This document shows, one piece after another, positions 7,937 to 8,521 of a DNA stretch of 64,000 nt. Made by a program: the position numbers and the translations under genes. Source of the DNA: Gemmatimonadota bacterium. GTDB taxonomy: Bacteria > Gemmatimonadota > Gemmatimonadetes > Palauibacterales > Palauibacteraceae. Below the pieces are notes generated by a model that did no database searches, had not been told where the DNA came from, and saw only the letters and a list, made by a program, of their open reading frames with translations. The stretch covers positions 10,364-74,363 of the forward strand of contig JAWWCR010000001.1 in NCBI GenBank assembly GCA_033720355.1. The letters run 5' to 3'. The number at the start of each line of letters is the position of its first letter. Position 1 is the first letter of the stretch.

Positions 7937-8521
7937 CTACGGCTCTTCCGGCTCCGGAGTCACCTCGTCGATGACCGCCGCCAGCTCGTCGTACGCGGCC
8001 GGGTCGACCTGGTTGAACTGAGGCATCACGCCCGCGATCCGGCCATCCGGCCCGACCACCACTACCGAGCGCGCCCCGACCATCCCGCCGTCGCGGAGAG
8101 GGCCCCCGTAGGACGAGTACACCTCGCCGGAAGGGTCGCTCGCGAAGAGGTACTGGAAGTCCTCATCGGCGAGCCACGACCGTCCCTCCTCGATCGCGTC
8201 GTTCGAGATGGCGATGAGCACGACGTTCCTGCCGTCGTTGAATACGCTTGCGTACTGATCACGGTACGCTCTCATCTGAACCGTTCAGCCACGCGTCCTG
8301 ACTCTGAAGAAGAACGCGAGCACCACGGTCTCGCCGCGGTAGTCGCTCAACCGAACGGGCTCCTCGAGCAATCCGTAGCGCGTCGCGCCCGGCAGCTCGA
8401 AGTCGGGGGCCATCTCCCCGACGGCTAGCAAGTCCGGTCCTTCTTCCTGAGCCGCGGCCGGCGCCGCGGCTCCGAGGGCGATCGCCCCCGCCAGGACGCC
8501 GAATACTGCGAGTCGGCGCAT
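7937..8521 (-). CDS. Exported peroxiredoxin (BCP / AhpC-TSA family) with in-frame TGA at 8285-8287; probable selenocysteine-containing Prx
   Basis: Track ORFs 8285..8665 and 7937..8275 are on the same strand and in the same frame. Only the TGA plus 9 nt separates them. The joined product reads MRRLAVFGVLAGAIALGAAAPAAAQE...MAPDFELPG...YRGETVVLAFFFRVRTRG-U-TVQMRAYRDQYASVFNDGRNVVLIAISND.... The TGA aligns with the peroxidatic Cys of the TPGCTVQ..RD motif. Start is ATG 8519-8521, preceded by AGGA. Confidence 0.7.
8250..8269 (-). other. Candidate bacterial SECIS-like hairpin downstream of the in-frame UGA
   Basis: The mRNA reads UGA-ACGGUUCAGAUGAGA-GCGUAC-CGUGAUCA-GUACGC. This is a perfect 6-bp stem with an 8-nt G/U-containing loop, and the stem starts 16 nt after the UGA. 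Alternative pairings exist (CUGA/UCAG around the UGA, and UACG-CAAG-CGUA just after). Confidence 0.45.

Follow-up and report, generated by a model that had tools for sequence, protein, structure and literature searches.

The in-frame UGA of a peroxiredoxin gene in the window (the whole stretch of DNA that was analysed, 64,000 nucleotides) is followed by a 20-nt hairpin, GCGUAC-CGUGAUCA-GUACGC (8269-8250, minus strand). Comparison of orthologues indicates that this hairpin is very probably the bacterial SECIS of a selenocysteine (Sec)-peroxiredoxin mRNA, and we infer from it SelB binding and actual Sec insertion. The mechanism is a known one, and so is the selenoprotein family (peroxiredoxin, Prx, with a TxxU motif). 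An earlier note on this DNA had suggested that a SECIS-like hairpin serves the in-frame UGA, and the suggestion is supported here by the invariance of the element in Sec forms, by its loss in Cys forms and by the RNAalifold consensus.

A peroxiredoxin gene with a predicted selenocysteine codon

The frame is open from the ATG at 8521 to the TAG at 7937 when TGA is read as U, giving a translation of 194 residues. It matches Pfam AhpC-TSA (PF00578) with 80 bits over residues 34-163, a match that spans the UGA, and the ATG start is aligned across orthologues. The two ORFs 7937-8275 and 8285-8665, which would be called separately by programs that read TGA as stop, are one predicted selenoprotein gene. 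The local motif is F-R-V-R-T-R-G-U-T-V-Q, and the location of T76-R-G-U79 within it places the UGA at the peroxidatic position. Since the mature protein has no Cys residue at all, it would be a 1-Sec type peroxiredoxin. The N-terminus MRRLAVFGVLAGAIALGAAAPAAAQEE is export-signal-like, with an A-x-A site and, as a weak Tat-like feature, RR. The peroxiredoxin is probably exported and periplasmic. Coordinates of all features are collected in Table 1.

Table 1. Positions in the window of the selenoperoxiredoxin gene, its hairpin and neighbouring genes, and contig positions of other candidates in the genome
Feature	Position	Strand	Remarks
Sec-peroxiredoxin gene (AhpC/TSA, BCP/PrxQ-like)	7937..8521	-	194 codons, predicted Sec at codon 79
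N-terminus, export-signal-like	8443-8521	-	
Codon 72	8306-8308	-	position -7 from Sec
Arg codon -2	8291-8293	-	before UGA
In-frame UGA, predicted Sec codon	8287-8285	-	codon 79, T-R-G-U (TxxU), peroxidatic position
Spacer ACG GUU CAG AUG AGA (ACGGUUCAGAUGAGA)	8284-8270	-	15 nt, UGA to hairpin
5' arm GCGUAC (Ala GCG + Tyr UAC)	8269-8264	-	invariant in 107/108 distinct Sec segments
Apical loop CGUGAUCA (Arg CGU, Asp GAU, Gln CA)	8263-8256	-	8 nt, G-U at loop positions 2-3
3' arm GUACGC (last base of Gln CAG, Tyr UAC, first two bases of Ala GCA)	8255-8250	-	invariant in 108/108
Optional seventh outer pair	8249 (3' partner), 8270 (5' partner)	-	A.A mismatch in this genome
DsbD_TM/CcdA-type membrane electron transporter	5942-6742	+	convergent to Sec-Prx gene
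TlpA-like thioredoxin/redoxin	within 6490-7296	+	convergent to Sec-Prx gene
Seven further selenoprotein candidates	C6:16243(+), C177:8981(-), C28:6720(-), C138:4061(-), C204:2180(+), C180:1014(-), C78:1360(+)		strand-oriented offsets

The full PxxxTxxU active-site motif is absent from this protein, position -7 from Sec, which otherwise holds the universal Pro of the Prx motif PxxxTxxC, being Phe (F-R-V-R-T-R-G-U). Among 154 Sec forms this position is F in 122, Y in 22 and P in 8, so that 144/154 carry F or Y; it is Pro in 28/28 Cys forms. The Sec forms that retain Pro are basal in the tree. The change from Pro to Phe or Tyr may be an active-site adaptation that followed the acquisition of Sec. 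Another feature lies closer to the UGA, at codon -2, where CGT is used in 88/95 of the Sec forms that have Arg there. Synonymous diversity at this codon is 0.16, and 0.37 after thinning; the bias may reflect the codon context ahead of the UGA, or merely shared ancestry.

Two genes convergent to the Sec-Prx gene encode a DsbD_TM/CcdA-type transporter and a TlpA-like protein (Table 1), and the TlpA-like gene adjoins the Prx gene in many relatives too. This suggests a periplasmic reducing pathway that would recycle the exported selenoperoxiredoxin.

The host genome is a Gemmatimonadota MAG of 69.7% G+C. It contains a tRNA-Sec (81 bits; called SeC(tca) by ARAGORN) together with selB (336 bits), selA (506 bits) and selD (254 bits), all of which exceed the curated cut-offs, and its SelB carries the SelB-wing_2 and SelB-wing_3 winged-helix domains. 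By these matches, the genome holds the complete Sec machinery: tRNA-Sec, SelA, SelB and SelD. Other selenoprotein genes were sought by a GC3-based scan combined with Pfam, in which a single domain had to span the in-frame TGA. The search yielded seven more genes that probably encode selenoproteins: two Prx-like (W-U-P-Y-C), two OsmC-like, one deiodinase-like (F-G-S-L-T-U-G-P-F), one of the UGSC family and one methyltransferase (U-I-G-G-A). A hairpin of 6-7 bp lies 10-19 nt past the TGA in every one of them, with the loops CGGGG, AGGCU, UGGAA (twice), AGGU, GGUCU and CGGAG. These loops are of 4-5 nt with a GG motif, as opposed to the 8-nt loop of the peroxiredoxin hairpin. One more candidate, on contig C56, was rejected, as it consists of two adjacent genes in the same frame (NDK and YceD) and is not a selenoprotein. 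A scan of the genome for hairpins with a GTGATC loop core gave 62 matches, mostly in ordinary coding sequence, and found no other such hairpin behind an in-frame TGA.

The UGA itself is conserved. One TGA is found at this column in 64/64 orthologues of the genus, family and order, and one class-level relative has TGC there. At the level of the phylum, a homologue was found in 339/401 genomes, with TGA in 148/150 among the matches listed. Phylum-search entries that appeared to hold one TGA and one TAG were set aside, since their TAG or TAA is simply the gene's own stop codon, where the alignment ends. Cys (TGC or TGT) occupies the UGA column in 28 homologues. The comparison set comprised 177 Sec-form loci (154 distinct), Gemmatimonadota-wide and with about 40-99% amino-acid identity to the query, and 28 Cys-form loci.

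The hairpin in one sequence and across the phylum

On the minus-strand mRNA the order of elements is GGC UGA, ACGGUUCAGAUGAGA, GCGUAC, CGUGAUCA, GUACGC and AAGCGUAUU. The hairpin starts at the 16th nucleotide after the UGA, within the AhpC/TSA domain; the perfect 6-bp GCGUAC/GUACGC stem that the earlier note had placed there is confirmed on the minus strand. The 8-nt loop, described as bearing G and U, reads C-G-U-G-A-U-C-A and indeed has G at position 2 and U at position 3. A possible inner G-C pair, pairable in 108/108 distinct sequences, would reduce the loop to a UGAU tetraloop closed over a C.A mismatch. At the other end of the stem an optional seventh pair is in the A.A state in this lineage, hence the stem is of 6 bp here.

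Folding of this sequence gave results that depend on the window. The 76-nt fold has a free energy of -17.3 kcal/mol (z = +0.42) and its MFE structure takes alternative pairings, and in the 161-nt fold (z = -0.34) the 6-bp hairpin is retained in both the MFE and the centroid structure. The free energy of the 20-mer is -7.0 kcal/mol bare and -8.5 kcal/mol with one flanking base per side, and that of the segment from the UGA to +48 is -9.2 kcal/mol. The pairing probability of the stem is 0.76 when folding begins at the UGA, 0.95-0.99 in larger windows and only 0.03 in the window from -10 to +60, where competing pairings win. Thus, on the proposed comparison with alternative folds, the hairpin is favoured (0.76-0.99) without upstream sequence or in a large window, but beaten in the 76-nt MFE. 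Of 308 random in-frame TGC codons of this genome, 25 (8%) are followed at the same spacing by a Watson-Crick hairpin with 6 bp or more. Given this base rate and the two z-scores, the description of the region as 'unusually self-complementary' is not supported. The hairpin does exist, but judged from one sequence alone it is not beyond chance. As the z-scores are not significant and the MFE is window-dependent, folding of a single sequence cannot settle the question alone, and since the hairpin is unremarkable in a single sequence, the case for a SECIS rests on the comparison of orthologues.

Two other pairings pointed out in the same segment, CUGA/UCAG and UACG/CGUA, are present in this sequence but are not conserved: all four pairs are possible in only 34/108 and 7/108 distinct sequences, respectively. 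They lie on freely varying synonymous sites, and we rejected both as accidents of this sequence.

The comparison of Sec and Cys forms demonstrates a sharp difference at the hairpin. Among the 154 distinct Sec forms, the 20-mer GCGTACCGTGATCAGTACGC has no mismatch in 143, one in 9 and two in 2; among the 28 Cys forms it has 3-10 mismatches, and the 6-bp stem can still form in 2/28. Orthologues with TGA, which the earlier note had named as a place to look, thus keep stem and loop almost unchanged, and those with Cys do not keep the element. The same is seen at synonymous sites. In Sec forms, the pairwise synonymous diversity of codons +6 to +11 (GCG TAC CGT GAT CAG TAC) is 0.023, versus 0.435 elsewhere, making these codons the lowest-diversity 6-codon window of the gene. 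In a thinned set of 64 sequences below 80% nucleotide identity the values are 0.044 versus 0.509, and in Cys forms the same codons show 0.368 versus 0.482. Codons +6 and +7, which form the 5' arm, have a synonymous diversity of 0.00. Spacer codons +1 to +3 have 0.34-0.48, indicating that these sites are free; the spacer is fixed in its length, at 15 nt in 117/118 metagenome occurrences.

Within the loop, Sec forms use CGT in 148/154 and GAT in 149/154, both rare codons in this high-G+C clade, whereas Cys forms with the same residues prefer CGC (16) and GAC (20). Loop position 3 is accordingly U in 148/154 Sec forms and G in the remaining 6/154 (CGG), never C or A; G as the sole alternative is what the bacterial SECIS consensus, G followed by G or U, allows. 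The encoded peptide is itself conserved. Its YRDxY core is for the most part preserved in Cys forms (R 79%, D 82%, second Y 93%), several of which have the full AYRDQY. The peptide MRAYRDQYAS had been said to lie in a normally variable part of Prx, compatible with RNA-level constraint; the part about variability is wrong, Y-R-D-x-Y being conserved in Cys forms, and the RNA-level constraint is seen in the synonymous sites. This makes for an unusually clean case of dual coding, in which the same peptide is written in frozen codons with UGA and in free codons with Cys.

In the tree, several Cys forms are nested among Sec forms and do not make up a single outgroup. Changes between Sec and Cys number at least 4 on well-supported branches and 8 by parsimony, and the element is lost in every nested Cys lineage. 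A phylogenetic sign test of Sec/Cys state versus stem gave a consistent direction, with 4 well-supported contrasts and hence a minimum p of 0.125, so that the test cannot reach p < 0.05. Two individual loci are of interest. L202 (G184:C80:6511-7104) is a Cys form whose sister in the tree is a Sec form; it has kept CGT GAT in the former loop (TCG TAC CGT GAT CGC TAC GCG) and, from its sequence, looks like a recent replacement of Sec by Cys with a decaying SECIS. In another genome a Cys copy and a Sec copy stand in tandem (L209 and L194, G160:C19:42116-43221), and the 20-mer is found only in the Sec copy.

Structural comparison points to the same element. RNAalifold, applied to 26 diverse Sec sequences, returned exactly the 6-bp hairpin as the consensus, at -8.15 kcal/mol. 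Compensatory changes, which the earlier note had suggested looking for, are absent from the six core pairs; these never vary, and therefore the core stem gives no covariation support. They are present in the seventh, outer pair, formed between the third positions of codon +5 and Ala codon +12. Among 108 distinct Sec forms this pair is AA in 50, GC in 19, UA in 18, CG in 14, AC in 6 and CC in 1; it thus takes three Watson-Crick types, and its covariation score was reached by 0/500 shuffles. In metagenomes the counts are UA 33, CG 32, GC 31 and AA 15. One variant, L055 (G026:C9), has the loop CGGGAUCG, in which the C.A mismatch is replaced by a C-G pair, resulting in an uninterrupted stem of 8 bp capped by a GGAU tetraloop (-14.2 kcal/mol). 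This variant supports reading the 8-nt loop as a mismatch, a G-C pair and a tetraloop. A scan of 8150-8350 against Rfam 15, with E values up to 10, matched no SECIS model and gave only chance matches to mir-3569 and sR34. Rfam makes no claim to cover all bacterial SECIS types.

As an independent and unbiased check, metagenomes were scanned for exact matches to the 20-mer, which retrieved 120 contigs. In 117/118 scorable occurrences the 20-mer is preceded by a TGA at exactly 15 nt and stands in a Prx context; in the single exception the distance to the TGA is 14 nt, so that the TGA is not in the frame of the hairpin codons, a 1-nt deletion being the apparent cause. The 20-mer placed 15 nt after a TGA can thus serve as a metagenome search tag for this selenoperoxiredoxin with almost no false positives. 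In two of these contigs the UGA followed by the exact 20-mer stands in what is clearly another Prx subfamily (YTKAFTPGUTREVR; A-F-T-P-G-U-T-R-E), so the element may reach beyond the family studied here.

Alternative explanations and a proposed mechanism

It is conceivable, but highly improbable, that the 20-mer serves a different function at the RNA or DNA level, tied to the UGA only indirectly, such as a ribosome-pausing or mRNA-stability hairpin, a SelB-independent stimulator of read-through, or a binding site for a protein or sRNA. Such a role would account for the conservation of every loop base, which goes beyond what the generic bacterial SECIS consensus needs, and for a loop unlike the GG loops of the other selenoprotein genes of the same genome; the 20-mer also includes the palindromes GTAC and TGATCA. 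However, the fixed 15-nt distance to the UGA, the loss in every Cys lineage, the full Sec machinery including a SelB with SECIS-binding domains, and the fit to the SECIS consensus are all expected of a SECIS and are required by no other role.

We give a very slight chance to the explanation that the hairpin is a mere by-product of protein conservation at AYRDQYA and that the RNA is without function. The amino acids by themselves determine four of the six stem pairs, which makes this explanation a serious one; what excludes it is solely the way Sec and Cys forms differ at synonymous sites. The explanation agrees with the conserved Y-R-D-x-Y of Cys forms and with the two Cys forms that keep the 6-bp stem. 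Yet Cys forms vary freely at synonymous sites and prefer CGC and GAC, whereas Sec forms are fixed not only on the rare CGT and GAT but also on GCG, TAC, CAG and TAC; moreover, the exact 20-mer accompanies a TGA almost without exception in metagenomes, and the outer pair covaries. Conservation of the peptide as the sole cause thus appears already largely refuted by the Sec versus Cys contrast. That the hairpin stands by chance beside a genuine Sec codon, with the real SECIS elsewhere, for example at CGACG-GCAGGAA-CGUCG about 50 nt downstream, would suit the z-scores and the 8% base rate of the single sequence but has next to no chance of being correct, and we rejected the downstream hairpin, as it is not conserved, has an ordinary synonymous diversity of 0.5-0.6 and lies beyond the 16-37 nt range of bacterial SECIS elements, the peroxiredoxin hairpin being the only constrained RNA segment of the gene.

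Taking the hairpin as a SECIS, we propose the following course of events. With the UGA in the ribosomal A site, the 15-nt spacer would lie in the mRNA channel and the hairpin at the channel entrance. The C-terminal winged-helix domain of SelB, in complex with Sec-tRNA(Sec) and GTP, would bind the apical part of the hairpin with its loop G-U, and this tethering would bring Sec-tRNA(Sec) to the UGA, for which release factor 2 competes. The outcome would be the 194-residue exported 1-Sec peroxiredoxin and not a 78-residue fragment. As to origin, the codons for Ala-Tyr and Tyr-Ala are naturally self-complementary and the peptide is conserved in Cys forms, which suggests that synonymous changes to a motif already in place gave rise to the element, the choice of GCG, UAC, CGU, GAU, CAG and UAC having turned A-Y-R-D-Q-Y-A into an RNA signal.

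A more far-reaching proposal is that the element represents a distinct, phylum-wide SECIS class, an invariant 20-mer with an apical part (C.A mismatch, G-C pair, UGAU tetraloop) unlike that of the GG-loop hairpins elsewhere in this genome, and that it arose as an exaptation of AYRDQYA codons through synonymous changes only. We regard this as unlikely. If it were true, it would imply a second mode of recognition by SelB, or an added role, for instance selenium-dependent tuning of an abundant periplasmic peroxidase.

Comparison with known selenoproteins and SECIS elements

A literature search for Gemmatimonadota selenoproteins found no paper specific to them. The present findings indicate that Gemmatimonadota, including the sponge-associated Candidatus Palauibacter, would depend on selenium for a probably periplasmic peroxidase. 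Sec-containing peroxiredoxins (TxxU; COG1225/PF00578) were first shown in Eubacterium acidaminophilum and are abundant in marine metagenomes (PMC1088965, PMC13188914). Like these, the protein described here has an AhpC/TSA fold, a peroxidatic Sec in T-x-x-U and homologues with Cys in the same column. Unlike them, it has a signal-peptide-like N-terminus, no Cys and Phe in place of the motif Pro, and its family is near-universal in Gemmatimonadota. Prx-like thiol:disulfide oxidoreductase selenoproteins (UxxC) belong to the same Pfam family, and the two W-U-P-Y-C genes of this genome are of that kind. Having TxxU and not UxxC, the protein belongs to the true Prx family, and the sequence of its putative SECIS differs from the hairpins of the UxxC genes.

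As in the bacterial SECIS of E. coli fdhF and fdnG, the stem-loop lies in the coding region right after the Sec UGA and has a small loop with G followed by U, and as in bacterial SECIS systems generally, the host genome has a SelB with C-terminal winged-helix domains. The spacer between UGA and hairpin is 11 nt in E. coli versus 15 nt here, and the hairpin has no evident bulged U.

The consensus of the Zhang and Gladyshev model (PMC13188914 Fig. 2A) has a loop of 3-9 nt on an upper stem of 4-16 bp, a G at loop position 1 or 2 with, as a rule, G or U next to it on the 3' side, a distance of 16-37 nt from the UGA to the apical loop and an MFE of -7.5 kcal/mol or lower (PMC13188914). The hairpin fits this consensus with its 8-nt loop, 6-bp stem and G2 U3, and its distance from UGA to loop, 21 nt (15-nt spacer plus 6-nt arm), falls within the range. 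Against the MFE threshold the 20-mer is borderline, narrowly missing it when bare and reaching it in context. Bacterial SECIS elements are usually described as poorly conserved in sequence, whereas the 20-mer of this gene is almost invariant across the phylum.
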